Shown here piece after piece: positions 24,784-43,507 of a stretch of 64,000 nt of DNA. Position numbers and translations under genes: made by a program. Below the pieces are notes generated by a model. That model was not told where the DNA came from, did no database searches, and saw only the letters and a program-made list of their open reading frames with translations. How positions within the stretch are numbered: the first letter of the stretch is position 1; each line of letters opens with the position of its first letter. This DNA is from Escherichia coli (GTDB taxonomy: Bacteria > Pseudomonadota > Gammaproteobacteria > Enterobacterales > Enterobacteriaceae): the NCBI RefSeq assembly GCF_046105845.1, contig NZ_CP151004.1. One strand, written 5' to 3'.

Positions 24784-26247
24784 TTACATCTTGGTATAAG
24801 GCTTAAAGCGTTCCTGCAGCTGGCGCAACTGGTCGATGCGCGCATCGTAACGCGCTTGTTGCAGGCTGCCTAATTTCACCTGCGAACTGGCGCTACTCAA
24901 CAAGGAAATGGCCTGATCGAGTCGCCCGGCGAGCGCATAACCTTCTGCTCGCGCAGCCAGTTCCTGATCGCGGTTATTTAGCGCCGCCTCCGCCTGTGCC
25001 AGTAAATCCCAGCCATTGCTGTCATCTTTATTATTAAAGGTGTAGCGATTGAGAATATTGGCCGCTTCTTGTGGTTGACCGCCTTGCAGATAAGCGTTCG
25101 CCAGGTTGAGCTGCAACACCGGATTGGTGCGCAAATCGCGGGCATTTTTCAGGCGATTGATAGCGTCATTGGCTTTGTTTTGCCCAAGATCGATATCGGT
25201 AGCCAGATCGAGATACCATGCATTGCCAGGTTCTGCCGCCAGTAACGGTTGCAGCGTTTTACGCGCTTCGTCGTATTTATTGGCTTCCATCGCCTGTAAA
25301 GCACGACCATATTGCGCCGCTCGTTGCTGACGAACGTTTCCTTTCGCCCATTCATCCAGCAAATCACTGGTGAGCTGGTTACGTCCGGAATTATACATCC
25401 CCAGTGTGCGCGCTTTCGCCAGATAGAAATCTTCCGACGACTGCACCACCATCGGGCGCATCTGATTAGCACGGTTGCGGGCATCTGCCAGACGACTTTC
25501 CGGCAATGGGTGAGTCAATAAAATTTCCGGCGGACGCGAGGAGTAACGCGCCTGATCGAGCAATTTTTCGAGGAAGGTCGGCATCGCCTGCGGATCGAAT
25601 CCTGAGCGTTGCAGCACCTGAATACCAATGCGATCCGCTTCCTGTTCATTTTGCTGGGTGAAGCTGATCATCCCCTGGCGAGTTCCCGCCAGTGTACCGG
25701 TCAGCGCTGCCATCCCCGCCTGCGGACTGGCCATCGCCAGTAAAATAGAACCTAACGCGCCGACCCAGGTCAGCGGCGCGCTGCGCTGTTGATCTTCCAT
25801 CGCTCGCGCCAGGTGACGTTGGGTGACGTGGGAGATTTCGTGCGCCATAACTGAAGCCAGTTGACTTTCGTTATCGGAATAACGGAACAGGGCAGAGTGC
25901 AGCACCACGTTGCCGCCAAAGAAAGCAAAGGCGTTAATTTCGTCGTTGTTGATCAGAAAGAAATGAAACGGTGTCTTAACCGAATTGGCATGCGAAACCA
26001 GACGCATCCCCAGCGAATTAATATATTGCGTTAACAGCGGGTCATTAATTAACGGCGCGCTGCCGCGTAGCTGGCGGACATAATAGTCGCCCATCTGCAT
26101 TTCCTGGCCAATGGAAAGCGTGCTTCCTGCGGAGGTTCCCATATCCGGCAAGGTGTCTGCGCTGTCGGCAAACGCCGGGGCTACCTGACCAATGGTCATA
26201 GCAGCAATGAGGGTTGCAACCAGGTTTTTTTTCAACTGCCTGAACAT
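24784..26247 (-). CDS. bepA: Periplasmic beta-barrel assembly-enhancing protease BepA (YfgC), M48 peptidase plus TPR
   Basis: 487 aa; signal peptide, HEISH zinc motif. Confidence 0.95.
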
Positions 26248-26459
26248 AACCTCTATCCTGTATTTCTGAAGATAGTCATTTGACCGATACTGTGAAATAT
26301 CGTTCCCACCGCGCCGCCTTTGAGTGTAACGGCGAAGATTAGCCCACTCAAATGACTTTTCAGTTTCCTGAATCCGTCATAAAAAGCGAAGTCTTTTTTG
26401 TGACATTTCGATACAATTGCGGATCGCAATCCCGCTCTTGAGGTTCAGGGAAGGTCTTT

Positions 26460-27521
26460 ATGCTCGAAATGTTGATGCAATGGTATCGCCGCCGTTTTAG
26501 CGACCCGGAAGCGATTGCCTTGCTGGTTATTTTAGTTGCCGGATTTGGCATTATCTTTTTCTTTAGTGGCCTGCTTGCTCCACTGTTGGTGGCTATTGTG
26601 CTGGCCTATTTGCTGGAATGGCCAACCGTGCGCCTGCAATCTATTGGCTGCTCCCGCCGCTGGGCGACGTCGATTGTATTGGTGGTTTTCGTCGGTATAT
26701 TGCTACTGATGGCGTTCGTGGTATTGCCTATCGCCTGGCAGCAGGGCATCTACTTAATTCGCGATATGCCGGGGATGCTCAATAAGCTTTCTGACTTTGC
26801 CGCCACGTTGCCGCGCCGCTATCCGGCGTTGATGGATGCGGGCATTATTGATGCAATGGCCGAAAATATGCGCAGTCGGATGCTGACCATGGGCGATTCG
26901 GTGGTGAAAATTTCCCTCGCCTCGCTGGTCGGTTTGCTGACCATTGCCGTCTATCTGGTGCTGGTACCATTGATGGTCTTCTTCCTGCTGAAAGACAAAG
27001 AGCAGATGCTGAACGCCGTTCGCCGGGTGCTGCCACGTAACCGTGGACTGGCAGGACAGGTGTGGAAGGAGATGAATCAACAAATCACCAACTATATCCG
27101 CGGCAAAGTGCTGGAGATGATCGTGGTGGGGATTGCCACCTGGCTGGGATTCTTACTCTTCGGGCTGAACTATTCGCTGCTGCTGGCTGTGCTGGTCGGC
27201 TTCTCGGTACTTATTCCGTACATTGGCGCATTTGTGGTGACCATTCCGGTGGTTGGCGTGGCGCTATTCCAGTTTGGTGCTGGCACGGAATTCTGGAGCT
27301 GCTTCGCGGTGTATCTGATCATTCAGGCGCTGGACGGCAACCTGTTAGTACCTGTGTTGTTCTCCGAAGCGGTTAACCTGCATCCGCTGGTCATTATTTT
27401 ATCAGTAGTGATCTTCGGTGGTTTGTGGGGATTCTGGGGCGTATTCTTCGCCATTCCATTGGCGACGCTGATCAAAGCCGTGATCCACGCCTGGCCCGAT
27501 GGGCAAATCGCGCAAGAATAA
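26460..27521 (+). CDS. perM: AI-2E family permease PerM (YfgO)
   Basis: 353 aa polytopic membrane protein; K-12 synteny. Confidence 0.9.
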   Translation: MLEMLMQWYRRRFSDPEAIALLVILVAGFGIIFFFSGLLAPLLVAIVLAYLLEWPTVRLQSIGCSRRWATSIVLVVFVGILLLMAFVVLPIAWQQGIYLIRDMPGMLNKLSDFAATLPRRYPALMDAGIIDAMAENMRSRMLTMGDSVVKISLASLVGLLTIAVYLVLVPLMVFFLLKDKEQMLNAVRRVLPRNRGLAGQVWKEMNQQITNYIRGKVLEMIVVGIATWLGFLLFGLNYSLLLAVLVGFSVLIPYIGAFVVTIPVVGVALFQFGAGTEFWSCFAVYLIIQALDGNLLVPVLFSEAVNLHPLVIILSVVIFGGLWGFWGVFFAIPLATLIKAVIHAWPDGQIAQE

Positions 27522-27525
27522 TCTT

Positions 27526-27558
27526 CAGCCCGACGAACTGTTTCGCCGGGCTGATTTT
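27526..27558 (+). terminator. Terminator between convergent perM and focB
   Basis: cagcccgacgaa ctgt ttcgccgggctg then attttt. Confidence 0.5.
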
Positions 27559-28407
27559 TCAGGATTCCTGACGTAAATAAATAGCCCGATAACAAATACT
27601 CACCAGCACTGCACCGCCGATAATATTACCCAGCATCACCGGGAGCAGATTGGCGGTAATAAAATGGCTGACCGTCAGTGCCGGAAAATGGTCTGCGCTA
27701 CTGTGCGCCAGTTGCCAGAAGGAGGTAGGGGCGAAATGGCGAATGGCAATGGCGAACGGAATCACAAACAAATTGGCGATACAGTGCTCAAAGCCACTGG
27801 CGACAAACAGGGTGATGGGCAAAATCATGGCGACGATTTTGTCGCATAATGAACGTCCGCAATAACTCATCCACAGCGCCAGACAAACCATCAGATTGCA
27901 CATAATGCCGAGGCTGACTGATTCAGTAAATGTATGATGCATTTTGCCCTCGGCGCAGTGTAAAACCGCGACTCCCCACATCGCGTTTTCACTCATCACC
28001 AGCCCGGAAAACCAGATTAACAAACTGAAACAGGCAATACCTGCCAGATTACCGCAGGCCACCAGAAGTGCATTAATCAGCCATGTTCGCCAGCTAATAA
28101 CGCCCCGACTTTTTGCCATCACCGTCATTACCGACGAGGTGAACAGGCTGGTGCCGCAAACCGCCAGCAAAATAAAGCCGAGCGTAAAGCAAAGGCCTCC
28201 CACCAGATGGGTTAATGCCTGTGAAGACGGGGCATCGGCGATAACGGTAAGGTAAAAAGTAAATCCGATCGCCATAAACACGCCTGCGGACATCGCCATT
28301 AAAAAGACCGACACTTTGCTGCGGGCAATTTTATGGGCGGCAATCCGTTCAGCGATTGCCGCTTTTCTGGCGCTCAACTGCAAGTCGAAAGAGAGTTTGT
28401 TTCTCAT
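27559..28407 (-). CDS. focB: Formate channel FocB
   Basis: 282 aa FNT-family membrane protein, last gene of hyf operon. Confidence 0.9.
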   Translation of the reverse strand: MRNKLSFDLQLSARKAAIAERIAAHKIARSKVSVFLMAMSAGVFMAIGFTFYLTVIADAPSSQALTHLVGGLCFTLGFILLAVCGTSLFTSSVMTVMAKSRGVISWRTWLINALLVACGNLAGIACFSLLIWFSGLVMSENAMWGVAVLHCAEGKMHHTFTESVSLGIMCNLMVCLALWMSYCGRSLCDKIVAMILPITLFVASGFEHCIANLFVIPFAIAIRHFAPTSFWQLAHSSADHFPALTVSHFITANLLPVMLGNIIGGAVLVSICYRAIYLRQES

Positions 28408-28428
28408 GAATACTCCTGCAAAAGCAGA

Positions 28429-30441
28429 TTACAACACCTCGCGAACCGAGATCCCCAGCCGCTGCATTCGTGACAGCAGCGTGGTGCGCTTCATCCCTAA
28501 TCGCGTCGCCGCGCCACGTGGCCCGGCAACAATGCCATTGGTTTCTCGCAATACCTGAACAATGCGCTGACGTTCTTCTTCGTCATTCTCTGGCGTCGTC
28601 GGGTGCAGCAACTGCGCCATTGAACTGCGAAGCGCTGAATCTTCATTTAGCGTCGGCAGTAAACGGCTTTGTCGGACATTTAGATGTAAATTCAGACTGT
28701 TACCGCGAGTCAGTAGTACCGCTCGCTCAATCACGTTTTCCAGCTCGCGCACGTTGCCCGGCCAGTCCCACGACATCAACTGGCGTAGCGCCTCGGTCGG
28801 GATGGCGTCAATTGCGCGATTCATATGGCGCGCCATTTTTTGCGTGAAATGCTTTGCTAAAAGAGGGATATCTTCCGGACGGTCGCGCAGTGGCGGCAGT
28901 TCCAGTGGGAAGACATTCAGGCGATAAAAGAGATCGCTGCGAAACTGGCGATCTTCAACCATTTGCCGCAAATCACGGTTGGTGGCGGCAATGACTTTGA
29001 CATTTACCGGGATCGTTCTACTCCCGCCGAGACGCTCAATCTCCCGTTCCTGCAATACGCGCAGCAGTTTAGGCTGAAGTTCTAACGGCAGATCGCCAAT
29101 TTCATCGAGAAACAACGTGCCGCCATCGGCAATTTCAAAACGACCACGATGGGTATTAATCGCACCAGTAAACGCCCCTTTGTCATGACCGAATAACTCA
29201 CTTTCCAGAAGACTGGCGGGGATGGCAGCGCAGTTGATTTTGACCAGCGGCTTGTCGCGTCGCGGGCTAAGTTGATGGATCGCTCTGGCGATCACCTCTT
29301 TGCCGGTTCCGGTTTCACCACAAATCAACACCGTACTGTCGCTCTTCGCCACAATATCTACCTGCTGGAGCAGGTCTTCCATTGCCTGGCTTTGATAGAT
29401 AATGTCACCGACGCCCAGATTCGAAAGGAGCTGCTCGCTAAGCTGGTGGTTTTCTTGCTGCAAGCTTTCCTGCAAATCGGTCATGCTGCGCCAGGCATCG
29501 GCATTGCCAACGGCAATAGCGATGCGATCGGCAATATGTTGTAGTAGTTGGCAGTTTTCCTCACTAAAGAGAGTGGAAGAGGTATGCGCCAGCAACAATG
29601 CACCCGGTGTATGGTTGCCAAAGGTGAGCGGTATAAGGAGCGCAGATTCGCAGCCGTTAGATGCAAGTAAGTGTAATAACGGGTCGCGTTGCCAGAGAAA
29701 CAGATCGTCTGCACGGTGCGTCAAGGTCGGTTGTCGGGTTTGTAGCGTTTGTGTCAGCAATACACTTTCGCCAGGCATACAGCGTGGCAGACACGCACAA
29801 TGTGAGGCAGAAAGATCGCTGCACCACAGGCTGAACTTCTCGTTCTTTCGATGATCGCCCAGTACCATACTGACTGAAGCCAGACCGAAAAAATGATGGA
29901 TCTCACGAGCGACGTCAGCGATCAGATCGTCGAGATCAAGATGTGACAACACTGCATTAGTGATATCCACCAGTACCCGATGATGATCGCGATCTTTCTC
30001 CAGCAAACGCAGCGCCACCTGCTGTTCTTCATCATTGAGCCATGATTGCAGAACCGGAGTGATTATGTGTGCCAGCCAGTTAAACAGTGTGCAATCCTGG
30101 GGAGTAAAACGACTGCCGTGGGTGCGAATAAAGCGTAGCTCCGCCATTCCACTACTGCCGAGAAGGACGGCGTGGCGCGAATAATCGACCATCTCACCCT
30201 GATACTCTGTTGTTGCCGTCACATCGCTGCCATCATCATGGTAGCGGTAATAGAAGTTGCTTTTGAGAACATGCAGTTCAATAAGTTGTACCGGGCTGAA
30301 CGGCGGCGGCAGCGGGATGAAGGCGCGTAATAAAGACGCCTTGCCGTGTTTCTGCGCTAACCGCTCCGCGAGCATTCCGTTTACCGCTTCAATTGTTATT
30401 CCTTGCGGCGGGGCAAACATCGCCTCGTCTGACATAGCCAT
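28429..30441 (-). CDS. hyfR: Sigma-54-dependent transcriptional activator HyfR
   Basis: GAF plus AAA+ ([14 protein letters not shown]) plus HTH; about 670 aa. Confidence 0.92.
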
Positions 30442-30470
30442 CAACAGTCCTTATTAATGAGAAATCCTTC

Positions 30471-30884
30471 TCACGCAATTTTTCTGGCCATCAGATAGAT
30501 GGCCGGTTCCTGCACAATTTCATCCAACAGATGAATGAATTGAATGCTACGCGCCTGCCACACAGACGTCGCGTCATCCGCCAGTGGCGCGAATGCCCGG
30601 GTCAACAGGGCGGTGTGGCTGGTGTCAATAACAATCTCACCAAAAGTCATCACCCCCAGCATCTTACGTCGGGCTTGCTCCTCTTCGACCAGTGCAAGCC
30701 AATCTTCGTATTCCGTCAGTGGGCAGCGGAAGGCGACATTCAGACAATCAATCACGCCAACGTGATGGCCGATAGCCAACGAGTAATACATTACCTGGGA
30801 GCTGTGTTCCGGCATCTCGTCGCTACTGGCGATAAATTTTTTTCGCAGCGTCCAGAAAACAATTTCCCCGCACGCCTCAGCCAT
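30471..30884 (-). CDS. hyfJ: Hydrogenase-4 component HyfJ
   Basis: 137 aa; synteny. Confidence 0.9.
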
Positions 30885-31635
30885 GTAACCCCCGGAGAAC
30901 GCGAAAGAGTTGCTGAACGATACTATTGAGACGCGGATCGTCGGCTTCGCGCAACCAGGTGTTAACCCGATTTCCTGTAGGATCGTCGCTTAAATGGCGC
31001 AGGAGTCGATCGCAAATTTCTCGCCCCTGACGATAGCCCGCCAGCCGCCGCGCTTCTCGCTCAATGGCGATACGCTGTGATGGCGGGATCTGCGGCCACA
31101 GCGGTTGCATGGTCACTCCGGTGGGATCGCGATAATCCACAGCGTGAATCTTCTGTTGCAGCAAACCGAGCGCCACGGCGAAACCGTGAATGGTGGCGGC
31201 CGGTGTTGGCGGGCAGCCGGGGATCCAAACATCAATGGGGACAATGGTGTCGCTACCGCCCCAGACGCTGTAGAGATCGTGGAAAATACCGCCGCCGACA
31301 CCGCACGCGCCGTAGGAAACACAAATTTTATGATCGGGGGCAGACTCATACGCCCGAAGTGCAGGCATACGCATCGCCCGGGTGACTGCGCCAGTAAATA
31401 ACAAAATATCGGCGTGACGCGGTGAAGAAACAACCTTAATGCCAAAACGTTCTGCGTCGAATACGGGTGTGATGGCAGCAAAAATTTCGATTTCACAGGC
31501 GTTGCAGCCGCCGCAATCGACGCGATAAACGTAAGCCGAGCGACGGATATCCTGTAACAAATGCTGCTTCATCTTTTGCGTTTGCTCGTCCAGCGTGATG
31601 GGCTGGCTGACATGTTGCGTAAGCACTGGACTCAT
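30877..31635 (-). CDS. hyfI: Hydrogenase-4 small subunit HyfI (NuoB-like)
   Basis: 252 aa; Cys motifs GCGGC, CPP. Confidence 0.93.
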
Positions 31636-32177
31636 AGCTGCTCCTTAGCCACCAGCGGTTCATCTGTGTCGTCGTTGATCAGCGTCGCGCGTTGTTTGCA
31701 TTCCGGGCAGACGCTCGCTTGCGCCCGTAACATTTCGCGGTTTTGTGGCGCATTTTGTTGCTGTGCCAACAGTTCTGCAGCCAGTGCGACGGTTTTTTGC
31801 GGGGCAAACGGGCGTTCGCAACGGCTGCAACGTTGTAGATGGAACGTCGCGCGGGTATAGAGATCGGCTTTATTGGTGACGGTCAGTTCAAAGTTATTGG
31901 TAAGCTGAATGGCTCTGGTCGGGCACACTTCTTCACAACGTCCGCAGTAAATACAACGCCCCAGATAGAGCTGCCAGGTGCGCGAATTTTGCTGGTCGTC
32001 GGTCTGGATAGTCAGCGCATTTGCCGGACAAGCACAGGCGCAGGCACCACAGGCAATACATTGGCTGGGCATCAGGTCCGGTTTCCCGCGAAAGCCTGGG
32101 CTGACCTCCAGTGGCGCGAAGGGATATTTCACCGTCGCGGTTCCGGCGCGCATAATAGTTTTCAGTAACTTCAGCAT
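31632..32177 (-). CDS. hyfH: Hydrogenase-4 ferredoxin subunit HyfH (2x[4Fe-4S])
   Basis: 181 aa; CxxCxxCxxxCP motifs. Confidence 0.93.
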
Positions 32178-32186
32178 CTTCTGTCC

Positions 32187-33902
32187 TTACTTCAGCGGCG
32201 AACGGTTACGATCAATGCCGTAGCGTTCGATCTCTTTATACGGCACGGTTTTTGACTGGCGCTTGCGCACATCAACCAGCGTCACACGGTCGGTACAGGA
32301 GTAGCAGGGATCAAGGCTACCGATAATTAGCGGTGCGTCAGAAACGGTATTGCCGCGCAGCATGTAACGCAGCACTGGCCAGTTGGCGTAGGTGGCGGCA
32401 CGACAGCGCCAGCGGAACAATTTTTGGTTATCACCGAGCATGCTCCAGTGCACGTCTTCACCGCGTGGCGCTTCAACAAAGCCCAGCGCGAATGCGTGAG
32501 GTTTATAGCTAAAGCCTTCGGTCAGCAGTGGGGTATCCGGCATGTTGTCGAGGGCAAATTCCAGCATTGCCAGCGAATCAAACGTCTCTTTGACACGGAC
32601 CATCACGCGGGAGAAGACATCGCCGCCGGTAAAGGTAAACAGCGTTTTGGGAATATTGCCGTAGTCGGCGTAGGGGTGATCAAAGCGCAAATCACGGGCA
32701 AAACCACTGCCGCGGATCAGCGGCCCGACAGGGCTATAATCACGGGCGATTTGTCGGTCGAGAATGCCAATGCCCTGAGTGCGTTGTTCCATATTCGGCG
32801 TGGCAAGCAGCATCTCTACCAGCTCCGACACGTCGGCGCGCATCTCGCGCACCAGTTTCAGCGTTTGCAGACGTTGCTCTTTGAGAATATCGCGGCGAAC
32901 ACCACCAATCAGATTCAGACCGTAGGTTTTACGCGACCCGGTCAGCAATTCCGCCATCGTCATCGACTTTTCCCGCACGCGGAAAAATTGCATAAAGCCG
33001 GTATCAAATCCAACAAAATGGCAGGAGAGGCCAAGGTTGAGCAAATGACTATGCAGCCGTTCGACTTCCAGCAGAATCGAGCGAATAGTATGCGCTCGTT
33101 GCGGCACCTCAATCCCCAGTGCATTTTCAACCGAGTTGGTATAGGCCACACTGTGGGCAAAACCGCAAATCCCACACACGCGGTCGGATAAGAAGGTCAC
33201 TTCGTTGTAGCCCATCCGCGTTTCTGCCAGTTTCTCCATGCCGCGATGGACATAAAACAGGCGGTAATCAGCATCGACAATTTGCTCGCCATCCACAAAC
33301 AAGCGGAAGTGACCTGGTTCATCGGAGGTGATATGCAGCGGGCCGACAGGGATCACCCGCGCATCGCTGTTGCCCTCGTTGATAAACGGATACGTTTCGG
33401 TATCAGTCGTCGGTTCTGGGCGCAGTCGATAATCCATCGCGTCTTTGCGCAGCGGATGCATATCTTCCGGCCAGTCATCGGGCAACACCAGCCGACGCTG
33501 ATCCGGCAGGCCAACCGGAATCAGCCCGTACATATCGCGAATTTCTCGCTCGCCCCAGACCGCGGCAGGGACGCGCGGTGTGACTGACGGAAACTCCCGA
33601 CTGTCGGCATCGACCAGTGCCTTCACCACAATCCAGCATTTTTCGGCCCCTTCCATAGAAAGGGCGTAATAAACCGCGTAATGACCGTTAAGTGTCCGCT
33701 CGTCGTTGCCAAACAGGACCGGAAGCCAGCCATCATGTTGATAATAAAGATAATGTACAACGTCAGGCAGCAGATTGATTTTCACCGTAATGGTGACCTG
33801 TTCAGGCGTTTGTCGCTCTTCATCCAGCACCGCGCCGGGGAACTGCGTTTTCAGGGCGGCGAGAATCGCTTCGCCACGATTTGACGATGAATTAACGTTC
33901 AC
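32187..33902 (-). CDS. hyfG: Hydrogenase-4 large (NiFe) subunit HyfG; start codon uncertain
   Basis: RxCGxC N-terminal and DPCxxC C-terminal NiFe ligand motifs; start placed at GTG (VNVNSSS), ORF track extends further. Confidence 0.85.
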
Positions 33903-35472
33903 TGTGTTTCTCCGAAACAGATGCGGTGCCTGAAGGCAAAAAATCATGCCAGGTGCTACGTTGTGCAGGCAGGTCGTGCGTCCCTGAGAGGACTATAGTG
34001 GAAGCGCCTGCCAGGATCCTGATGACAGGTTGTGGAATATGCGTTCCCATCGCCAGCATCATGACCAGCAGAATCACCATTGGCGAGGTGGTCAACCAGC
34101 CAAGTTCACCCCGGTTAACGGCCTGCGGCGGTTTCGCCATTAACACCCGCGCAGCCATCCGTACCAGGCCCGCCAGCACCAGCGTTAACAGCAATAACAG
34201 CAGGACGATAAGCAGCAGATGATTACGCGCCAGTCCGGCGGTAACGGTCATAAATTCGCTAAGAAAAATGTTGAAGGGCGGCATCCCGGCCAGCGCCAGC
34301 GCACCGCCGCCAAACAACACGGCGGTAAATGGCATGATTTTGAGCATCCCACAGACGACGTTGAGATCGCGCGTGCCGTACTTGAGCAGTACATTGCCGG
34401 AACCGCAGAACAACAGCGTTTTGGCCAGACTGTGGTTTAAGGTGTGCAGCAGCGCGGCAAAAATTCCCAGCGGCCCGCCAATGCCTAACGCCACCGCGAC
34501 CAGTCCCATGTTCTCCACGCTGGAGTACGCCAGCAGACGCTTAATGTCCCGCTGTACCAGAATGAAAAATGCCGCCACGGCAACCGACAACATGCCGAAG
34601 ATGAGCAACAACCGGTTGGGGAAATCGCTGCCGATGGCCTGGCAAATAATGATGTAATAGCGAATCAGCACCAACAGCGCGCAGTTCAGCAATACGGCGG
34701 AGAGCAGGGCGCTGACCGGACTCGGCGCTTCACTGTGAGCATCCGGCAGCCAGGCGTGCATGGGAAATAGCCCGGTTTTGGTGCCAAAGCCAATTAGCAC
34801 AAACACAAAGGCCAACAGCATTAATGTTGGGTCAAGCAAGGACGATTGCTTAAGAACCTCGCTCCAGAATATCGCCATTTCTGCCTGCGGCATAACGCTG
34901 GCGGCGTTGGCGTATACCAGCACGGTACCGAACAGACCAAAAGCGACACCAACAGTACAAATAATGATGTACTTCCATGCAGCTTCCAGCGATGAACGCT
35001 GACCGTAAATGCCTACCAGAAACGCCGAGCTTAAGGTGGTGGCTTCGATCGCCGCCCACATCACAATCAGGTTATTGCTGGTAACAACCAGCAGCATGGT
35101 GAACAAAAACAGATGGAAGAAACCGTAGTAATCGCACAGCGTAACGGGTGAAAGCTCGCCGTGCTCCACTTCATGACGCATGTAGCCAATCGAGTAAACA
35201 CCGGTGAGAAAGCCAATCACACCAAGAATGGCGAGGAACAAACCGCCCAGACCATCAATATGAAGCCACAGTCCCGCAGCGAATATTTCTCCCGCATCAG
35301 CGGCAGTTTGGACCACCCAGAGTGCCAGAATCAGCAGCAGTGTGATCCCTAAGCTATGTAATACTGTCACCGCGCAAGTCGCAGAGTGCCCCCGTTTCCG
35401 GCAGGCAAAACAGAGCAGCGAAAAAAGCAGCGGCGTGAGCAGGAGTAAAGCGAACATCACAGAATAACTCAT
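33892..35472 (-). CDS. hyfF: Hydrogenase-4 membrane subunit HyfF (NuoM/N-like antiporter module)
   Basis: 526 aa polytopic. Confidence 0.93.
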
Positions 35473-35476
35473 CTCA

Positions 35477-36127
35477 TTATCCCTTCAGCGCGGTCAAGTT
35501 GTTCACGTCCAGCGTGCCGTGGGTACGCCATATTTTTCTTGCCAGTAACACCATCACAATGACGGCGAAGATGGCGTCGGTAGCGATACCAATTTCCACC
35601 AGTTCCGGTGCACGCCAGGCTAGAAGCGCCAGCACCAGATGGGAGCCGTTTTCCATCAGGCAGTAACCAAAGATTTGCCGCAGGATATTGCGCTGGCTGA
35701 CAATGCACAGCAGGCCAAGCAGAAAATGACCTAACGCTACCGCCAGCGCCGGTTTCAGCCCGGTAGCCATCGGTAGCTTCACGGGCTGAACGACAAATGC
35801 GCAAAGCAGGACAATTAACGCCGCGAGCAGTGCCATCATTGCCGGACCGAATAACGCTTTTTCCGGGATATTCTGGGGAATATTTCGTGCAGCGTAAGTC
35901 ATGATTAACGGTACCAGCAGCACTTTGGTGATAAAGGCGCTGGCGGACCAGATCAGCAGTTGCTCTGCGGCGAACAGGCACGAGAGAGTGGCGAAAATAG
36001 ACACCAGCACCAGCGACTGGCAGGCGTAAAATCCGCATGACAGGCGATAGCTTTTGACGCTAATCACAAACAGCGATGTCAGCATCATCAGTCCCGCCAG
36101 ATTATTTACGATCATAGAACCGGTCAT
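35477..36127 (-). CDS. hyfE: Hydrogenase-4 membrane subunit HyfE
   Basis: 216 aa polytopic. Confidence 0.92.
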
Positions 36128-36138
36128 TCATCATCTCC

Positions 36139-37578
36139 TTACTGCAACCAGGTCGCGGCGATTACGCTGGAAATCAGCGACATCACAATCAGTACAATCA
36201 ACACCAGGCGCATTGATCCTGGCAGCGGTGCGGCATCGGCGACGGCCTCGCTCGGTTTGCCAGGCACGACGCGACCAAACCAGCGAATAAACCAGGCGAA
36301 ACTGGCGACCGATTCAATCATCAGCAGAATCATGGCGGGCAGCAGGATCCAGTACTCCACTGACAACGCAAAACCGGCGGCAAACAGCGGGAATTTACTG
36401 AAGAAGCCGTTGAACGGCGGTACGCCGGTAATCGCCAGCGCTGCCACGCAGAAACCCACGCCTGGCAACGGCAGGGTGTGCAATACGCCACGCAGACGCG
36501 GCAACAAGCGCGTGCCGCAGCTGTAACTCAGCGCACCTGCTACAAGGAAAAACAGGCTTTTAGCGAACGCGTGGTTGACGATGTAGGCGATGCTACCCTC
36601 CAGCGCCAGCCGCGAGCCGAAGATGGAGAGCGACAAGCCGAAGAACATCCAGCCAAGTTGAGTGATGGTCGACCAGGCCAGCAACCGCTTCATATCCTGC
36701 TGTGGCAAATACATCAGGAAGCCGTAAAGAATGGTGACCAGTGCCATAACCATGCCAACGCCGCCAATCACATGCGGGATATTGCCGCCGTCGATAATGG
36801 CACGGGCAAAAATGTAAACGCCCACTTTCACCATCGATGCGGCGTGGAGATAGGCGCTGATCGGTGTTGGCGCTTCCATTGCGTCCGGTAGCCACGCTTG
36901 CATCGGTAGCTGGGCCGATTTCCCCCACGCGGCAAACAGGATGCCGCCATAAACCAGATAACGTGCGTCGCCGTGTAACTCGCTCATCGCGCTAAGCGCA
37001 AACGTTCCGGTCTGCAAAAACAGCGTGGCGGCGGCAAGATACAACCCCAGCGAACCGATATGAGTGATAAGTAACGCTTTTAGTGCTGAACGCTGCGCTT
37101 TATCGCTCTGGTAATAACTGATCAACGCCCAGGAGCAGCCGCCCGTAATTTCAAAAAACAACAACTGACCGAGCAGCGTCGAGGAGAGTACCAGTCCCGC
37201 CATCGCGCCGATAAAAACCAGCAAAAATGCGTAATAACGATTCGTGCCGTTATGCGGGTGTTCGCGATTTTTATCCGTCAGATAACCCGTGGAGTAGATC
37301 GTGACCAGCAAACCGAGAAACACCACCACAAACAGAATCAGCGTACTCACGCGATCAATGACCAGGCCAAACAACGCCACATCCCCCACGTTGACCAACG
37401 TCAACGTGACGGCAACTTTATCGGCCTGATAAAACGCGGAGATCAGTGACAACATGCACAGCGTGGTCAGCGCGGCGAACAAAACCCCCCATTCGGCGGC
37501 CCGACGTTGTGGCGAAAACGAAACGACCAGTGCGCCGATAAAAGGCAGCATTAACGTCGTCAGAGCAAGATTTTCCAT
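36139..37578 (-). CDS. hyfD: Hydrogenase-4 membrane subunit HyfD (NuoL/M-like)
   Basis: 479 aa polytopic. Confidence 0.93.
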   Translation of the reverse strand: MENLALTTLMLPFIGALVVSFSPQRRAAEWGVLFAALTTLCMLSLISAFYQADKVAVTLTLVNVGDVALFGLVIDRVSTLILFVVVFLGLLVTIYSTGYLTDKNREHPHNGTNRYYAFLLVFIGAMAGLVLSSTLLGQLLFFEITGGCSWALISYYQSDKAQRSALKALLITHIGSLGLYLAAATLFLQTGTFALSAMSELHGDARYLVYGGILFAAWGKSAQLPMQAWLPDAMEAPTPISAYLHAASMVKVGVYIFARAIIDGGNIPHVIGGVGMVMALVTILYGFLMYLPQQDMKRLLAWSTITQLGWMFFGLSLSIFGSRLALEGSIAYIVNHAFAKSLFFLVAGALSYSCGTRLLPRLRGVLHTLPLPGVGFCVAALAITGVPPFNGFFSKFPLFAAGFALSVEYWILLPAMILLMIESVASFAWFIRWFGRVVPGKPSEAVADAAPLPGSMRLVLIVLIVMSLISSVIAATWLQ

Positions 37579-37594
37579 ATTCCGTCAGTGCTCC

Positions 37595-38542
37595 TTACAG
37601 ACCGGTTAACCAGAAGACCCATGCAAGCGCAGCAAGGCTGAAGCCAAGCCAGGTCACATGGTGAATGAGTAAAAAACGCCCGCGTGCCAGCGTGTTTTCT
37701 GCGATTGAGGCCAGTACAAAAATCAGCAAAACCTTGAGCAGCGTAACGACAAGAGAAGTCAGCAGGCAGGCGAGAGAAAGTTCTTGCGCGCGCCCAAAGG
37801 GCAGAAACAGGGCCACAAACAGTGCTGCCATCACGACCTGTTTCAGCCCCAGCCCCCATTTCGCCAGCGCCAGCCCGGCACCGGAATATTCGGTCAGCGG
37901 GCCTTCCTGTAATTCCTGTTCTGCTTCAGCAACATCAAAGGGAATTTTTCCCATCTCAATGAAGCAGGCAAAACCACAGGCCAGTAACGCCAGTACGGTG
38001 GTTAGCGGCGAGTTCCAGCCCGTCGCCAGCGTCTTGCTGATCATCTCGATATGCGTGGAATCCGCTATCAGCGCCAATACCAGCAGTGAGAGAATGAGCA
38101 TGGGTTCGACCAGAATGCCGAGCGTCAACTCGCGACTGGCACCGACTCCCGCAAACGGGCTTCCGGTATCCAGCCCTGAAAGAGCAAAGAAAAAACGAAA
38201 CAGGGCAAGAAGATAGATAAGGGTGATCAGATCGCCGCCGCCCGCAAAAGGGGAAACGGTAATAAATAGTGGCAGGGCCATCGCCAGCACCAGCATGCTG
38301 CTGATTAATACCCACGGCATCAGGCGGAACATCAGACCTGAAGATGTCGGCGCAACTTCCTGGCGTTTAAACAGTTTGTGGATATCGCGATAATCCTGCC
38401 AGATCCCCGGTCCGCGACGGGAGTGCATTCGCGCGCGTATCTGCCGGGAAATACCCGTAAAAAGCGGGGTTAGCATCAGCAGAATCACGGCCTGTGCTAA
38501 CGCAAAAATGACCAGATATCCGTCGCAAAGAGTTTGTCTCAT
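37595..38542 (-). CDS. hyfC: Hydrogenase-4 membrane subunit HyfC (NuoH-like)
   Basis: 315 aa from MRQTLCDGYLVIF. Confidence 0.9.
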   Translation of the reverse strand: MRQTLCDGYLVIFALAQAVILLMLTPLFTGISRQIRARMHSRRGPGIWQDYRDIHKLFKRQEVAPTSSGLMFRLMPWVLISSMLVLAMALPLFITVSPFAGGGDLITLIYLLALFRFFFALSGLDTGSPFAGVGASRELTLGILVEPMLILSLLVLALIADSTHIEMISKTLATGWNSPLTTVLALLACGFACFIEMGKIPFDVAEAEQELQEGPLTEYSGAGLALAKWGLGLKQVVMAALFVALFLPFGRAQELSLACLLTSLVVTLLKVLLIFVLASIAENTLARGRFLLIHHVTWLGFSLAALAWVFWLTGL

Positions 38543-38552
38543 GGTGATTTCC

Positions 38553-40571
38553 TTAGACGGCAATAGCGATTAGCAGCACAACCAGTGCGGCGACCACATA
38601 CAGGCAATAGAGACGAAAGTCGCCGCTTTGCAGATGCTGTATTTCTTTGGCCAGCCGTTGGGTGGCGCTCACGATGGGGCGGATCACCCGCTCATCCCAG
38701 AAGGGTTCTGTGCTCTGAGCCCTGGCGGTGACATGCGCAAGACCTTTGTTCAGCCTCAGCGTAGGGTCGAGCTGTTGTCGTAGACGAAATAGCGCACAAA
38801 AGACCACACGCAGCGGCTGCATCACGCCATTGCCTGACGGGGCCATCGCATTTTCCCAGCCGTAGCCGCATGCCCAGGCATCTCCTGTGCGACGAAACGC
38901 TGCGCGGCGCGAACGACACCACAGCCAGTAAAGGCCAGGCAGCAAAGGCATCGCCAGTAGTAACAGCAACAGTAATGAGGGAGTGACCCGTGTATGAAAC
39001 GTGCCGGGTACAAGTGCTATTCCGCTGGCGACAGTGACGGGAGGGGTATTGGTAAACGCATGGGCAATGTGCATTATCTTCGGTGCCAGCCAACTGGCAC
39101 TAAGCGCAATTAATATGCAGAGTGCCGCGAGCAGTAGCATGGCGACGATCATCGTATTTGGCACTTCCTGTGCCTCTTCAGCGTGTGTACTGCGCGGCGC
39201 TCCACAGAAAGTAATACCGTACATTTTGACGAAGCACATTACTGCCAGCCCACCAGTGACTGCCAGCATCACCATAGCAATAGGACCCGCAAGTTGTAGC
39301 GCTACGGCTTCCACACGACTTAGTGAGAACAGCGACTGCCAGGTGTACCATTCGCTGATAAAACCATTCAGCGGAGGAATGGCTGATATCGCGAGGCAAC
39401 CAATCAGGCATGCTGCGGCTGTCCACGGCATACGTTTCGCCAGTGCCCCCATTTTTTCCATGTCGTGGGTATGCAAACGCGAAATAATCGCACCCGCGCC
39501 GAGAAACAGCAGCCCTTTGAACAGCGCATGGTTGAGCAGATGAAACAGCGCGCCGAGCAGTCCAACAACGGTGAGCAGCGGGTCGTGCAGTGACAGACCG
39601 ACCATCGCCACACCGACCGCCAGCAAAATAATGCCGACGTTTTCGACGGTACTCCAGGCCAGCAGCCGTTTGATATCCTGTTCCGCCAGCGCATACAGCA
39701 CGCCCAGGAGCGCGGAGATTGCGCCGATCGCCATCACCAGAATGCCCCACCACAGCGGCAAACCCGTTTGCGCCAGCAGGTCCATCGCTACTTTCAGGAT
39801 GCCGAAAATACCGATTTTGACCATTACGCCAGACATCAACGCCGAAGCGTGCGATGGTGCGGCAGGGTGAGCGCGTGGCAACCAGCTGTGCAACGGCATC
39901 ATCCCGGCTTTCGCGCCAAAACCGAAGAAGGCCAGCAGGAACACCGCCGACGCCAGCCCCGGAGAAAGTGAAAGCGTGCGGAAACTGGCAAAATCGAGGC
40001 TGCCGCTTTCGCGCCACATCAGCAAGAAGGCGATCATAATCAGCACCGATCCGGCGTGGGCGATAAAAAAGTAGAGCATGCCAGCGTTGATCGACGTTTT
40101 ATCCTGCCTGGCAATGACCAGAAACCAGGAAGACAGCGACATCATTTCAAACAGCACGATGAACCAAAAAGCGTTGTCCATCACCAGCAGGGCAACCATC
40201 GATGCGATGAAAATATTCATAAAGAAGCCCATCGCCGCCGCGCCTTTGCCCTCGTATTCGCGCATATAAGTCAATGAATAGAGCGAACAAACTACCACCA
40301 GCAAGGAGATAACCAGCACCATAAATGCCGAGAGGCTATCCATTCGCAGGGTTAAATCGGCAAAGTCAAAAGGGGTTGCAAAACGGGCGACTAAAGTTAC
40401 GCCTGCATGTAATTGCGTAATTCCGCTGATGATGCCAATCACGCCGCCCACCAGCGATGTGATGCCGGAAAGCTTAATAGCCAGTCTGTCCAGACCGAGT
40501 AAAAACAGCGAAGCCAGACTGGCAAACAGATAGAGAATCAGCGACCAGGTTAATAATTGCAGGGCATCCAT
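38553..40571 (-). CDS. hyfB: Hydrogenase-4 membrane subunit HyfB (NuoL-like)
   Basis: 672 aa polytopic. Confidence 0.93.
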   Translation of the reverse strand: MDALQLLTWSLILYLFASLASLFLLGLDRLAIKLSGITSLVGGVIGIISGITQLHAGVTLVARFATPFDFADLTLRMDSLSAFMVLVISLLVVVCSLYSLTYMREYEGKGAAAMGFFMNIFIASMVALLVMDNAFWFIVLFEMMSLSSWFLVIARQDKTSINAGMLYFFIAHAGSVLIMIAFLLMWRESGSLDFASFRTLSLSPGLASAVFLLAFFGFGAKAGMMPLHSWLPRAHPAAPSHASALMSGVMVKIGIFGILKVAMDLLAQTGLPLWWGILVMAIGAISALLGVLYALAEQDIKRLLAWSTVENVGIILLAVGVAMVGLSLHDPLLTVVGLLGALFHLLNHALFKGLLFLGAGAIISRLHTHDMEKMGALAKRMPWTAAACLIGCLAISAIPPLNGFISEWYTWQSLFSLSRVEAVALQLAGPIAMVMLAVTGGLAVMCFVKMYGITFCGAPRSTHAEEAQEVPNTMIVAMLLLAALCILIALSASWLAPKIMHIAHAFTNTPPVTVASGIALVPGTFHTRVTPSLLLLLLLAMPLLPGLYWLWCRSRRAAFRRTGDAWACGYGWENAMAPSGNGVMQPLRVVFCALFRLRQQLDPTLRLNKGLAHVTARAQSTEPFWDERVIRPIVSATQRLAKEIQHLQSGDFRLYCLYVVAALVVLLIAIAV

Positions 40572-41188
40572 TAGCGTTGCTCCTGAGTGAGGGAAAGGGG
40601 ATCCTCCTCGCCATTGGCAAACCAGCTTGCGGCAAGGCGCTGTTTTTCTTTCATCTGACGTTGCAGGCTATCGTCGGTGATCAGCCGTAACGCCTGATTC
40701 GGGCAAGCGCGAACGCAGGCCGGACCTTCTGGCAAGAAATCACACAGGTCGCATTTCACCGCGACGGTCTGGACACCCGGTTCCCAGCGCAGCAAAGCAT
40801 GTTGTGTTGGCGCGTTTTCTTCGCCGTCTTTGAGTGAGCCTTCAGCCTGAAAAACATATTGCGCAGGGGCATTCACCGGACGGCTTCCTGAAGCGCTGAT
40901 TGCGCCAAATGGGCAGACCACGGCGCAAAGCTTGCAGCCAATACAGAGGCTTTCGTTGAGTTGGATCGCATCATCCCTCTGGGAGATGGCATTGACCGGG
41001 CAGACCTGCAGGCAAGGGGCTTCCTCACAGTGATGACACACGACAGGGGCAGTGAGTGTTGACGTCTTCGCCAGGGCCAGGCGCGGGTGTTGCTGTAAAC
41101 CTTGCGTTTTATGCACGTCCGAACAGGCAGCGAGACAGGTATTACATCCTGTACACCACAGTGGTTCGGCCACCACAAAGCGGTTCAT
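40571..41188 (-). CDS. hyfA: Hydrogenase-4 ferredoxin subunit HyfA
   Basis: 205 aa from MNRFVVAEPLWCTGC; multiple 4Fe-4S Cys clusters. Confidence 0.9.
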   Translation of the reverse strand: MNRFVVAEPLWCTGCNTCLAACSDVHKTQGLQQHPRLALAKTSTLTAPVVCHHCEEAPCLQVCPVNAISQRDDAIQLNESLCIGCKLCAVVCPFGAISASGSRPVNAPAQYVFQAEGSLKDGEENAPTQHALLRWEPGVQTVAVKCDLCDFLPEGPACVRACPNQALRLITDDSLQRQMKEKQRLAASWFANGEEDPLSLTQEQR

Positions 41189-41228
41189 GTCGGCTCCTTG
41201 AAAATGATATGAAACATTGCATTTCATA

Positions 41229-41246
41229 TTGCATAAAGGATGCCAG
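41229..41246 (-). promoter_or_regulatory. Sigma-54 (-24/-12) promoter of the hyf operon
   Basis: Minus-strand cTGGCAtcctttaTGCAa matches TGGCAC-N5-TTGCA; about 30-40 bp upstream of hyfA. Confidence 0.55.
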
Positions 41247-41440
41247 TCTTATTAATTTAATATATTCAATAAGTTATGAATTAACTGGATTCTGAACGGT
41301 ACAAAAATGATGGTCATTAACGTTCAGCAAAAAATGGATTCGACACCCGTGTCGCAGGGGAAAGTGAGAATGTGATCTTGGTCACGAGAAGTGAGGTGTG
41401 CTGACCACAAGCGCAGCCAGCACGGAATGGAGCAAAGTAA

Positions 41441-41911
41441 TCAGGCGTGTTCTTTCAGCCAGTTCAGCACAACGTCGTGGTGATTGCTGGTTTTGAAATC
41501 GTCAAAGACATGTTCGATTTTGCCATCAGCGTCAATCAGGAAGCTGATGCGATGAATACCATCGTAGGTTTTGCCCATGAAGGACTTTTCACCCCAGACG
41601 CCGAATTGTTCGCACACCTGGTGGTCCTCATCAGACAGGAGCGTAAAGTTAAGCAGCTCTTTTTCCGCAAAACGGGAGAGTTTTTCGGGTTTATCGGTGC
41701 TGATACCCAGCACATCAACGCCCGCTTTTTTCAACTCATCCATGTTATCGCGTAAGCCGCAGGCCTGTACGGTACAGCCGGGGGTCATGGCTTTCGGGTA
41801 GAAATAAACCAGAACACGCTGTCCCTGGAAGTCGGTCAAATTAACTTGTTCTCCGTCTTGATCCGGCAAGCTAAATTTCGGTGCGATATCACCGGCTTTC
41901 AGTGGATTCAT
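41441..41911 (-). CDS. bcp: Thiol peroxidase Bcp (peroxiredoxin)
   Basis: 156 aa; PGCT active site. Confidence 0.95.
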   Translation of the reverse strand: MNPLKAGDIAPKFSLPDQDGEQVNLTDFQGQRVLVYFYPKAMTPGCTVQACGLRDNMDELKKAGVDVLGISTDKPEKLSRFAEKELLNFTLLSDEDHQVCEQFGVWGEKSFMGKTYDGIHRISFLIDADGKIEHVFDDFKTSNHHDVVLNWLKEHA

Positions 41912-42483
41912 TACTTAACTCCATCCTGTTCATCATGTTGGGAATAATTGACGACGTTAATACTGCCTTGTGCATTGAGTTCTGTACATAGGGCTTTGAA
42001 TGCTTGCTCAATATTTGCTGAGTCCGCAGATGCGGGGCTGTGGGCGGTTATCTGAATATGCAACTGCGCAGCCCGTTTATTTTCAGCAGGTTGCGTGCGC
42101 GACACCAGCTCCGCAATGTTCATATGATGCGCGTCGAAAAGTGCTGTGAAGCGTTCAATTAAATGCGGGGAGTCTGCCACATCGACCTGAACCCAGACAG
42201 ATGCTGGCATTGGCGGACGCGGACGCGCCGTCGTGCGCTTCATCACGATTAAAAGATCCAGCTCGGCACCTTTCAACGGTAACGTTGATTCAATCAGAGT
42301 AATGGCATTCCATGAACCGGAAAGCAGCATGATAAACGTGAACTCTTCTCCCAGCATCGCCAGGCGACTGTCTTCAATATTACAGCCGCAACTACTGACA
42401 TGACGGGTGATGGTGTTCACAATTCCAGGGCGATCGGCACCCAACGCAGTGATCACCAGATAATGTTGCGATGACAGTGTCAA
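41911..42483 (-). CDS. gcvR: Glycine cleavage system regulator GcvR (TTG start)
   Basis: 190 aa from (M)TLSSQHYLVITALGADRPG; ACT domains. Confidence 0.88.
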   Translation of the reverse strand: MTLSSQHYLVITALGADRPGIVNTITRHVSSCGCNIEDSRLAMLGEEFTFIMLLSGSWNAITLIESTLPLKGAELDLLIVMKRTTARPRPPMPASVWVQVDVADSPHLIERFTALFDAHHMNIAELVSRTQPAENKRAAQLHIQITAHSPASADSANIEQAFKALCTELNAQGSINVVNYSQHDEQDGVK

Positions 42484-42628
42484 ACTGGTTATTCCTTTAA
42501 GGGGTGAGTTGTTCTTAAGGAAAGCATAAAAAAAACATGCATACAACAATCAGAACGGTTCTGTCTGCTTGCTTTTAATGCCATACCAAACGTACCATTG
42601 AGACACTTGTTTGCACAGAGGATGGCCC

Positions 42629-43507
42629 ATGTTCACGGGAAGTATTGTCGCGATTGTTACTCCGATGGATGAAAAAGGTAATGTCTGTCGGGCTAGCTTG
42701 AAAAAACTGATTGATTATCATGTCGCCAGCGGTACTTCGGCGATCGTTTCTGTTGGCACCACTGGCGAGTCCGCTACCTTAAATCATGACGAACATGCTG
42801 ATGTGGTGATGATGACGCTGGAGCTGGCTGACGGGCGCATTCCGGTGATTGCCGGGACCGGCGCTAACGCTACTGCGGAAGCCATTAGCCTGACGCAGCG
42901 CTTCAATGACAGTGGTATCGTCGGCTGCCTGACGGTAACCCCTTACTACAATCGTCCGTCGCAAGAAGGTTTGTATCAGCATTTCAAAGCCATCGCTGAA
43001 CATACTGACCTGCCGCAAATTCTGTATAATGTGCCGTCCCGGACTGGCTGCGATCTGCTCCCGGAAACGGTGGGCCGTCTGGCGAAAGTAAAAAATATTA
43101 TCGGAATCAAAGAGGCAACAGGGAACTTAACGCGTGTAAACCAGATCAAAGAGCTGGTTTCAGATGATTTTGTTCTGCTGAGCGGCGATGATGCGAGCGC
43201 GCTGGACTTCATGCAATTAGGCGGTCATGGGGTTATTTCCGTTACGGCTAACGTCGCAGCGCGTGATATGGCCCAGATGTGCAAACTGGCAGCAGAAGGG
43301 CATTTTGCCGAGGCACGCGTTATTAATCAGCGTCTGATGCCATTACACAACAAACTATTTGTCGAACCCAATCCAATCCCGGTGAAATGGGCATGTAAGG
43401 AACTGGGTCTTGTGGCGACCGATACGCTGCGCCTGCCAATGACACCAATCACCGACAGTGGTCGTGAGACGGTCAGAGCGGCGCTTAAGCATGCCGGTTT
43501 GCTGTAA
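42629..43507 (+). CDS. dapA: 4-hydroxy-tetrahydrodipicolinate synthase DapA
   Basis: 292 aa from [17 protein letters not shown]. Confidence 0.95.

Follow-up and report, generated by a model that had tools for sequence, protein, structure and literature searches.

The window, by which we mean the whole stretch of 64,000 nucleotides that was analysed, is part of the Escherichia coli chromosome, as 421 bases around the site under study have a full or partial match in 5,424 of the 5,426 complete E. coli genomes and the region is annotated there as bcp/hyfA. The best match is strain TB06052, in which PGAP gives the order bcp, hyfABCDEFGHIJ, hyfR, focB and then the convergent yfgO. Coordinate transfer from this strain led to 12 ORFs from hyfA to focB that are intact, of full length and colinear with TB06052, with no indels and no internal stops, and the encoded proteins are 97-100% identical to those of K-12 save for an indel in hyfG. 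The genes and the end of the operon are:

40571-41188, minus strand: hyfA, intact
38553-40571, minus strand: hyfB, intact
37595-38542, minus strand: hyfC, intact
36139-37578, minus strand: hyfD, intact
35477-36127, minus strand: hyfE, intact
33892-35472, minus strand: hyfF, intact
32187-33902, minus strand: hyfG, intact and of full length
31632-32177, minus strand: hyfH, intact
30877-31635, minus strand: hyfI, intact
30471-30884, minus strand: hyfJ, intact
30471..41188, minus strand: structural genes hyfA-hyfJ taken together, assigned by Pfam domains and colinearity
28429..30441, minus strand: hyfR, sigma-54 enhancer-binding protein of 670 aa (Pfam GAF, Sigma54_activat with 5e-75, AAA_lid_14 and HTH_8)
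27559..28407, minus strand: focB, formate channel of 282 aa (Pfam Form_Nir_trans, 4e-64), intact
27554-27525, minus strand: terminator-like hairpin of 13 pairs directly after the focB stop, found by hairpin search; end of the operon

The gene order identifies a hyf operon, with hyfA-J including the FHL-2-specific membrane subunits HyfD, HyfE and HyfF, followed by hyfR and focB. HyfG is a group 4a NiFe large subunit with RVCGIC at residue 241, DPCYSCTDR at residue 531 and a tail of 32 residues after it, and was aligned end to end with HycE of PDB 7z0s. HyfR carries GAFTGA at residue 422 and is 99.1% identical to K-12 HyfR. Nothing terminator-like or sigma-70-like was detected in the 29-bp gap between hyfJ and hyfR, and an Rfam search of positions 26000-43000 gave no known RNA family. 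An initial annotation, made from the sequence alone, had let the operon end in hyfR (AAA+ GAFTGA) and focB, and both genes are indeed present and intact. The same annotation had put hyfR next to the promoter, which does not hold, as the gene is found at the distal end of the operon, some 10.7 kb downstream of the promoter. Its description of the locus as complete applies to the 12 intact ORFs but not beyond them, as the E. coli hyf cluster contains neither a maturation protease nor a formate dehydrogenase gene (PMC7654741).

The spacer between bcp and hyfA has a length of 252 bp and contains a sigma-54 promoter element that is oriented to hyfA:

41246..41230, minus strand: sigma-54 -24/-12 element CTGGCATCCTTTATGCA, assigned from motif, matrix, identity with the K-12 core and conservation
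41218..41219, minus strand: predicted transcription start
41189..41219, minus strand: 5' UTR of 31 nt with the RBS AAGGAG (41199-41194), read from the sequence and invariant in six E. coli strains

In this element, the GG (41244-41243) and the GC (41232-41231) show the canonical spacing of exactly one helical turn, and 41 nt separate it from the hyfA ATG at 41188. The string TGGCAT-N5-ATGCA, which had been read on the minus strand upstream of hyfA, is found there exactly. Deviations from the consensus are TGGCAT instead of TGGCAC, then CC instead of GR, and ATGCA instead of TTGCA. The transcription start was predicted as the motif centre plus 19 bp, a geometry taken from the footnotes to Table 1 of Bonocora, so that the centre at 41238 leads to a start at 41219, 31 bp before the hyfA ATG. 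For hyfA itself, both PGAP and the K-12 annotation begin at the position equivalent to 41188; a longer ORF from 41227 was discarded, since it merely begins at the first in-frame ATG past a stop. Two kinds of repeat are located close to the element, namely a perfect 8-bp inverted repeat ATATGAAA-N7-TTTCATAT (41207-41234, minus strand), which spans the -12 edge and the start site, and a direct repeat of ATGCAAT, 12 bp apart, near the -12/start region. Both are invariant in E. coli and are not kept in Citrobacter and Kosakonia. As the left arm of the inverted repeat is upstream of the start, any role of this repeat would be at the DNA level. A second sigma-54 promoter formed by the duplicated ATGCAAT 12 bp downstream was rejected, as a GG is missing at the distance that would be needed, and so was a reading of the ATGCA repeats as an NsrR-type site, because the spacing is one off when aligned by hand.

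The strength of the motif was evaluated in the window. TGGCA-N7-TGCA occurs once in the 64 kb compared to 1.2 expected occurrences, and a search with the sigma-54 consensus string and up to 3 mismatches was non-discriminating (113 matches compared to 132 expected). A log-odds matrix was derived from the 41 other intergenic sense sigma-54 sites defined by ChIP (Bonocora et al., 2015, Table 1; PMC4591121). With this matrix CTGGCATCCTTTATGCA scored 15.1 bits, which is rank 1 among approximately 128,000 window positions on both strands and exceeds the scores of 16 of the 41 training sites. In simulated sequences approximately 1.05 matches of at least 15.1 bits are expected per 64 kb, and the hyfA sigma-54 motif alone is not significant. 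The probability of finding a match this good by chance on the correct strand and at most 100 bp upstream of hyfA is roughly 1e-3. As the motif by itself is at about chance level, the case rests on its position, its orientation, its conservation across genera and published binding. We also noted a hit of 13.2 bits to the same matrix within hyfR, about 200 bp upstream of focB (ATGGCGCAGTTGCTGCA; 28604-28620, minus strand); this is probably a chance match, as the high-stringency K-12 ChIP-seq list of Bonocora contains no hyf-internal site.

The expected frequency of about one motif of equal quality per 64 kb would fit a chance motif, with hyf being transcribed from a sigma-70 promoter in the spacer or by read-through from bcp. 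We regard this explanation as very improbable, as a sigma-70 promoter scan of the bcp-hyfA spacer found none and as the site has been observed to be occupied. In K-12, ATGGCATCCTTTATGCA upstream of hyfA is the sigma-54 ChIP-seq site OS23 with a fold-above-threshold of 16, flagged 'C' as experimentally confirmed in EcoCyc (as relayed by Bonocora) and with a predicted start 31 bp from hyfA (Bonocora et al., 2015; PMC4591121). In gSELEX with the sigma-54 holoenzyme, the bcp>hyfA spacer reached 92% of the maximum with the holoenzyme alone and 100%, the highest peak genome-wide, when NtrC was added (Shimada et al., 2021; PMC8743547). Sigma-54 thus occupies exactly this sequence in K-12 both in vivo and in vitro, which argues against a chance motif. 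In earlier work by Skibinski et al. (2002), the start reportedly mapped to 30 bp upstream of hyfA by primer extension, and hyf expression is said to have been sigma-54- and FhlA-dependent and induced by formate at low pH.

Conservation of position and orientation across many genera also speaks against a fortuitous match. A scan for HyfA with one genome per species led to 45 loci, of which 43 were usable for the sigma-54 test. In 26 of these 43 the best match in 400 bp was a sense sigma-54 match of at least 12 bits located 38-83 nt upstream of the start of the HyfA homologue, whereas the same analysis gave only 4 loci for the antisense strand and none for the first 400 coding bases. This result agrees with the S5 table of Bonocora, which gives the hyfA site a score of 11.4-12.6 in Yokenella, Pectobacterium, Dickeya, Brenneria and Proteus, whereas genera that lack hyf score close to zero (PMC4591121). 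ATGGCATCCTTTGTGCA is present at the E. coli spacing in four Citrobacter loci. The synteny gcvR-bcp-hyfA is kept in Citrobacter and Kosakonia, with the spacer aligning as discrete conserved blocks, and in six divergent E. coli strains the core, the 5' UTR and a stretch from approximately -145 to -66 are invariant. As a separate observation, antisense matrix matches of 14.6-17.3 bits were detected within the 400 bp upstream of hyfA at four loci (L018, L019, L022 and L027; Sodalis, an Enterobacterales MAG and Dickeya), suggesting divergent sigma-54 promoters with one common enhancer region, similar to E. coli hycA/hypA.

From the K-12 literature and the conservation, the site is almost certainly hyfAp, the sigma-54-dependent promoter of hyfABCDEFGHIJR-focB encoding hydrogenase-4/formate hydrogenlyase-2. 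The assignment of a sigma-54 promoter to hyf in the initial annotation is therefore supported by a core that is that of K-12 hyfAp, by ChIP-seq and gSELEX binding at this core and by its conservation across genera. hyfAp is already known, and the site described here is neither a new member of its class nor a variant. As expected for a sigma-54 promoter, the GG/GC spacing, an intergenic position directed to a gene, an encoded GAFTGA activator and an upstream palindrome together with an IHF-like site were all found at this locus. The control region, with positions given relative to the predicted start at 41219, contains the following elements:

41386-41371, minus strand: CRP-type palindrome CGTGACCAAGATCACA, centre at approximately -159.5; also the best match to the FhlA matrix
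41354-41341, minus strand: candidate enhancer (UAS) for FhlA/HyfR, palindrome CGACACGGGTGTCG, centre at -128.5; a conserved alignment block
41316-41301, minus strand: invariant block TGACCATCATTTTTGT, -97..-82; conserved in Escherichia, Citrobacter and Kosakonia
41264..41276, plus strand (antisense to hyf): IHF-like site ATTCAATAAGTTA, -57..-45, in the interval between UAS and promoter; one mismatch to WATCAANNNNTTR

When 44 loci were searched with the pattern CGACAC-N3/4-TGNCG and at most one mismatch, it was detected upstream of hyfA in 29 of them, compared to 5/44 coding controls and 1.5/44 shuffles. Its centre is located at -126.5 to -128.5 in Escherichia, Citrobacter, Kosakonia and Atlantibacter despite differing lengths of the 5' UTR, and nearer to the promoter in Dickeya, Sodalis, Morganella and Providencia. 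The arrangement CGWCA-N4-TGWCG is also found at FhlA-dependent promoters of K-12, as CGTCAAAACTGACG upstream of fdhF and as CGTCACTAGTGTCG upstream of hydN, and the K-12 hyc-hyp spacer contains a cluster of TGTCG/CGACA half-sites. Moreover, CGACACGGGTGTCG fits the frame of two TGWC elements in the published FhlA matrix (PMC7658346). The conservation in 29 of 44 loci, the arrangement at fdhF and hydN and the frame of the FhlA matrix point to CGACACGGGTGTCG as the probable enhancer for FhlA/HyfR. The same bases could form a weak hairpin of 5 pairs, the sole terminator-like element in the bcp-hyfA interval, which would be in line with read-through from bcp. This hairpin was rejected as a bcp terminator, as its sequence is kept in Citrobacter and Kosakonia with no compensatory pairing, and bcp is followed there by other, GC-rich hairpins. 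Being conserved as sequence and without compensatory changes, 41354-41341 behaves as a protein-binding site, which speaks against transcription of hyf by read-through.

CGTGACCAAGATCACA scores well for two regulators. Its score with the FhlA matrix is 12.4 bits compared to 10.3 bits at the 95th percentile of shuffles, and at the corresponding position Citrobacter has a perfect TGTGA-N6-TCACA, with conservation also in Kosakonia. An FhlA site is disfavoured here, as it is the bases of a CRP site (G-TGA...TCACA) that are invariant, while the positions critical for FhlA vary or hold minority bases, and we favour its reading as a CRP-type site. TGACCATCATTTTTGT shows only one variable position, a Y (C/T), across Escherichia, Citrobacter and Kosakonia; it was not found in more distant genera and did not match the consensus sequences of CRP, FNR, IHF or FhlA. 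At the position aligned to ATTCAATAAGTTA, three Citrobacter loci have a perfect WATCAANNNNTTR and similar sites are present in Morganella and Providencia. This conservation-based map of the hyf control region, with UAS, IHF and CRP sites and one invariant block, may serve as a guide for footprinting.

Together, these elements suggest the following mechanism. Sigma-54 RNA polymerase, whose binding has been shown for K-12, would occupy the -24 GG and -12 GC (41246-41230) in a stable closed complex that does not start by itself. A GAFTGA-type AAA+ activator, FhlA encoded elsewhere and/or HyfR from the distal end of the hyf operon, would bind the palindrome CGACAC-N4-GTCG at -128.5, as its conservation and its resemblance to the fdhF/hydN enhancers suggest. 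According to the general mechanism of this promoter class, a bend at the IHF-like site (-57..-45) would join the activator to the polymerase, and ATP hydrolysis would open the promoter, with transcription expected from approximately 41219, 31 nt before hyfA. The CRP-type site at approximately -160 probably adds catabolite control.

Related systems conform to this mechanism, as FhlA and RpoN are required for hyf in P. mirabilis and the FHL-2 of P. atrosepticum requires HyfR. We also considered that HyfR instead of FhlA is the physiological activator, acting through a site of its own such as the -97..-82 block in place of the FhlA-type palindrome. In favour of this, the operon itself encodes HyfR, a complete enhancer-binding protein, the FHL-2 of P. 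atrosepticum is HyfR-dependent, and the -97..-82 block, whose conservation is limited to Escherichia, Citrobacter and Kosakonia, might be a site specific for HyfR. Plasmid-borne HyfR reportedly raised hyf expression about 1000-fold while barely affecting fdhF or hyc, and purified HyfR is said to have bound the promoter region. Nevertheless, a chromosomal hyfR deletion was reportedly without effect in K-12, where native induction needed FhlA, and RT-PCR is said to have given no hyfJ-hyfR product. Among the upstream elements, the FhlA-type palindrome common to fdhF and hydN is the one with the widest conservation, and the P. mirabilis system is FhlA-dependent, so that HyfR as the physiological activator is a possibility to which we give less weight than to activation through this palindrome. 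The designation of HyfR as the activator of hyf in the initial annotation thus stands with respect to a complete enhancer-binding protein, but the native activator in K-12 is reportedly FhlA.

A different question is whether the promoter is still used, or whether it is a relic with the sigma-54 holoenzyme bound and poised but almost never activated, in an operon that is decaying in E. coli. Descriptions of hyf in K-12 are of a silent or poorly expressed operon, nearly silent under laboratory conditions, and formate-dependent H2 evolution by Hyd-4 has never been detected (PMC7654741). The 13.6-kb block from hyf to focB including the promoter (window 27559-41440) shows a presence/absence polymorphism and is missing from approximately 21% of the complete E. 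coli genomes, with about 1,127 of 5,426 retaining no more than the initial ~50 bp downstream of bcp; in an ST131 genome, 97 bp lie between bcp and yfgO (L003, 6001-6098). In strain NH-21, hyfA is annotated by PGAP as a pseudogene with an internal stop (L004, 553-891), which likewise points to a decay of hyf in some lineages, and a deletion allele of hyfG is found in approximately 54% of the hyf-positive genomes. Against decay, the promoter and the 5' UTR, together with the blocks for UAS, IHF and CRP, do not vary among divergent E. coli and remain conserved in Citrobacter and Kosakonia, and all 12 ORFs are intact here, including a full-length hyfG. Formate, low pH or overproduction of HyfR also reportedly led to strong induction of a hyfA-lacZ fusion. 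We consider a relic unlikely.

The hyfG alleles deserve a closer description. HyfG comprises 571 aa here and 555 aa in K-12 MG1655, which is without 16 residues (386-401; window positions 32700-32747, minus strand). Two exact copies of GCCCGTGATT are present in the window, one opening the 48-bp segment and one right after it, while K-12 has a single copy of this 10-bp repeat, the signature of a 48-bp in-frame deletion between direct repeats. The 16-residue segment aligns without gaps to HycE in the cryo-EM structure of FHL-1 (7z0s_E: ARDFSNVGPMVRASGH) and to the MBH of P. furiosus (6cfw_L), indicating that the long form of HyfG is ancestral. With an insert-specific query, the long allele was detected in 1,984 genomes, approximately 46% of the ~4,295 that are hyf-positive; a query with the K-12 junction was non-discriminating, as BLAST joined both halves. 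Two hyfG alleles are thus common in natural E. coli, the one with the deletion being that of the laboratory reference. No mention of the 48-bp deletion was found in the part of the Hyd-4 literature that we covered, and it may be noted elsewhere; the inactivity of K-12 FHL-2 is described in this literature as unexplained, even after promoter replacement. The operon described here may differ functionally from that of K-12: as a tentative suggestion, the deletion could explain the inactivity of Hyd-4, and strains with full-length hyfG might make an active FHL-2 once the promoter is activated. If the deletion indeed inactivates the enzyme, this would be a simple explanation for two decades of negative results with E. 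coli hydrogenase-4, and strains with a full-length hyfG such as this one would be the right background for a study of E. coli FHL-2. The promoter itself adds nothing new, and only the difference between the hyfG alleles merits further work.

Compared to K-12 hyfAp, the promoter is at the same locus in the same 252-bp spacer, TGGCATCCTTTATGCA and all bases from there to the ATG are identical, and the predicted start is 31 bp before hyfA in both. The base 5' of TGGCA (41246) is C here and A in K-12, C being commoner at sigma-54 sites, which results in 15.1 instead of 13.6 bits, a gain of about 1.6 bits. This C is common to O157:H7 and TB06052, whereas K-12, NH-21, FDAARGOS_401 and EC93 have A. 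Further SNPs are limited to a few between -27 and -65 and to the region upstream of -145. The spacer haplotype of the window is matched at 99% or more by 20 genomes only, and the full-length hyfG and the slightly more consensus-like promoter co-occur in this strain. In the FhlA-dependent formate regulon, fdhF, hycA, hypA and hydN share with hyf a -24/-12 element, a CGWCA-N4-TGWCG palindrome approximately 90-130 bp upstream, an AT-rich IHF-type region between palindrome and promoter and an activator of the GAF-AAA+-HTH type. hyf differs from this regulon in a second, paralogous activator encoded in the operon, HyfR, and in the CRP-type site at approximately -160, and its promoter match is weaker than those of hypA and hycA (PSSM 10.5 compared to 12.4-14.1; Bonocora, PMC4591121). 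Finally, the hyf clusters of Pectobacterium, Dickeya, Proteus, Morganella and Providencia, which encode a functional FHL-2, also encode the HyfK protease that E. coli does not have (PMC7654741). Their hyf promoters have a sigma-54 site 42-56 nt upstream of hyfA and the same palindrome, with its centre at -84 to -120 and thus nearer than the -128.5 of E. coli. Unlike E. coli hyf, Dickeya and Sodalis show an additional strong divergent sigma-54 site on the opposite strand.
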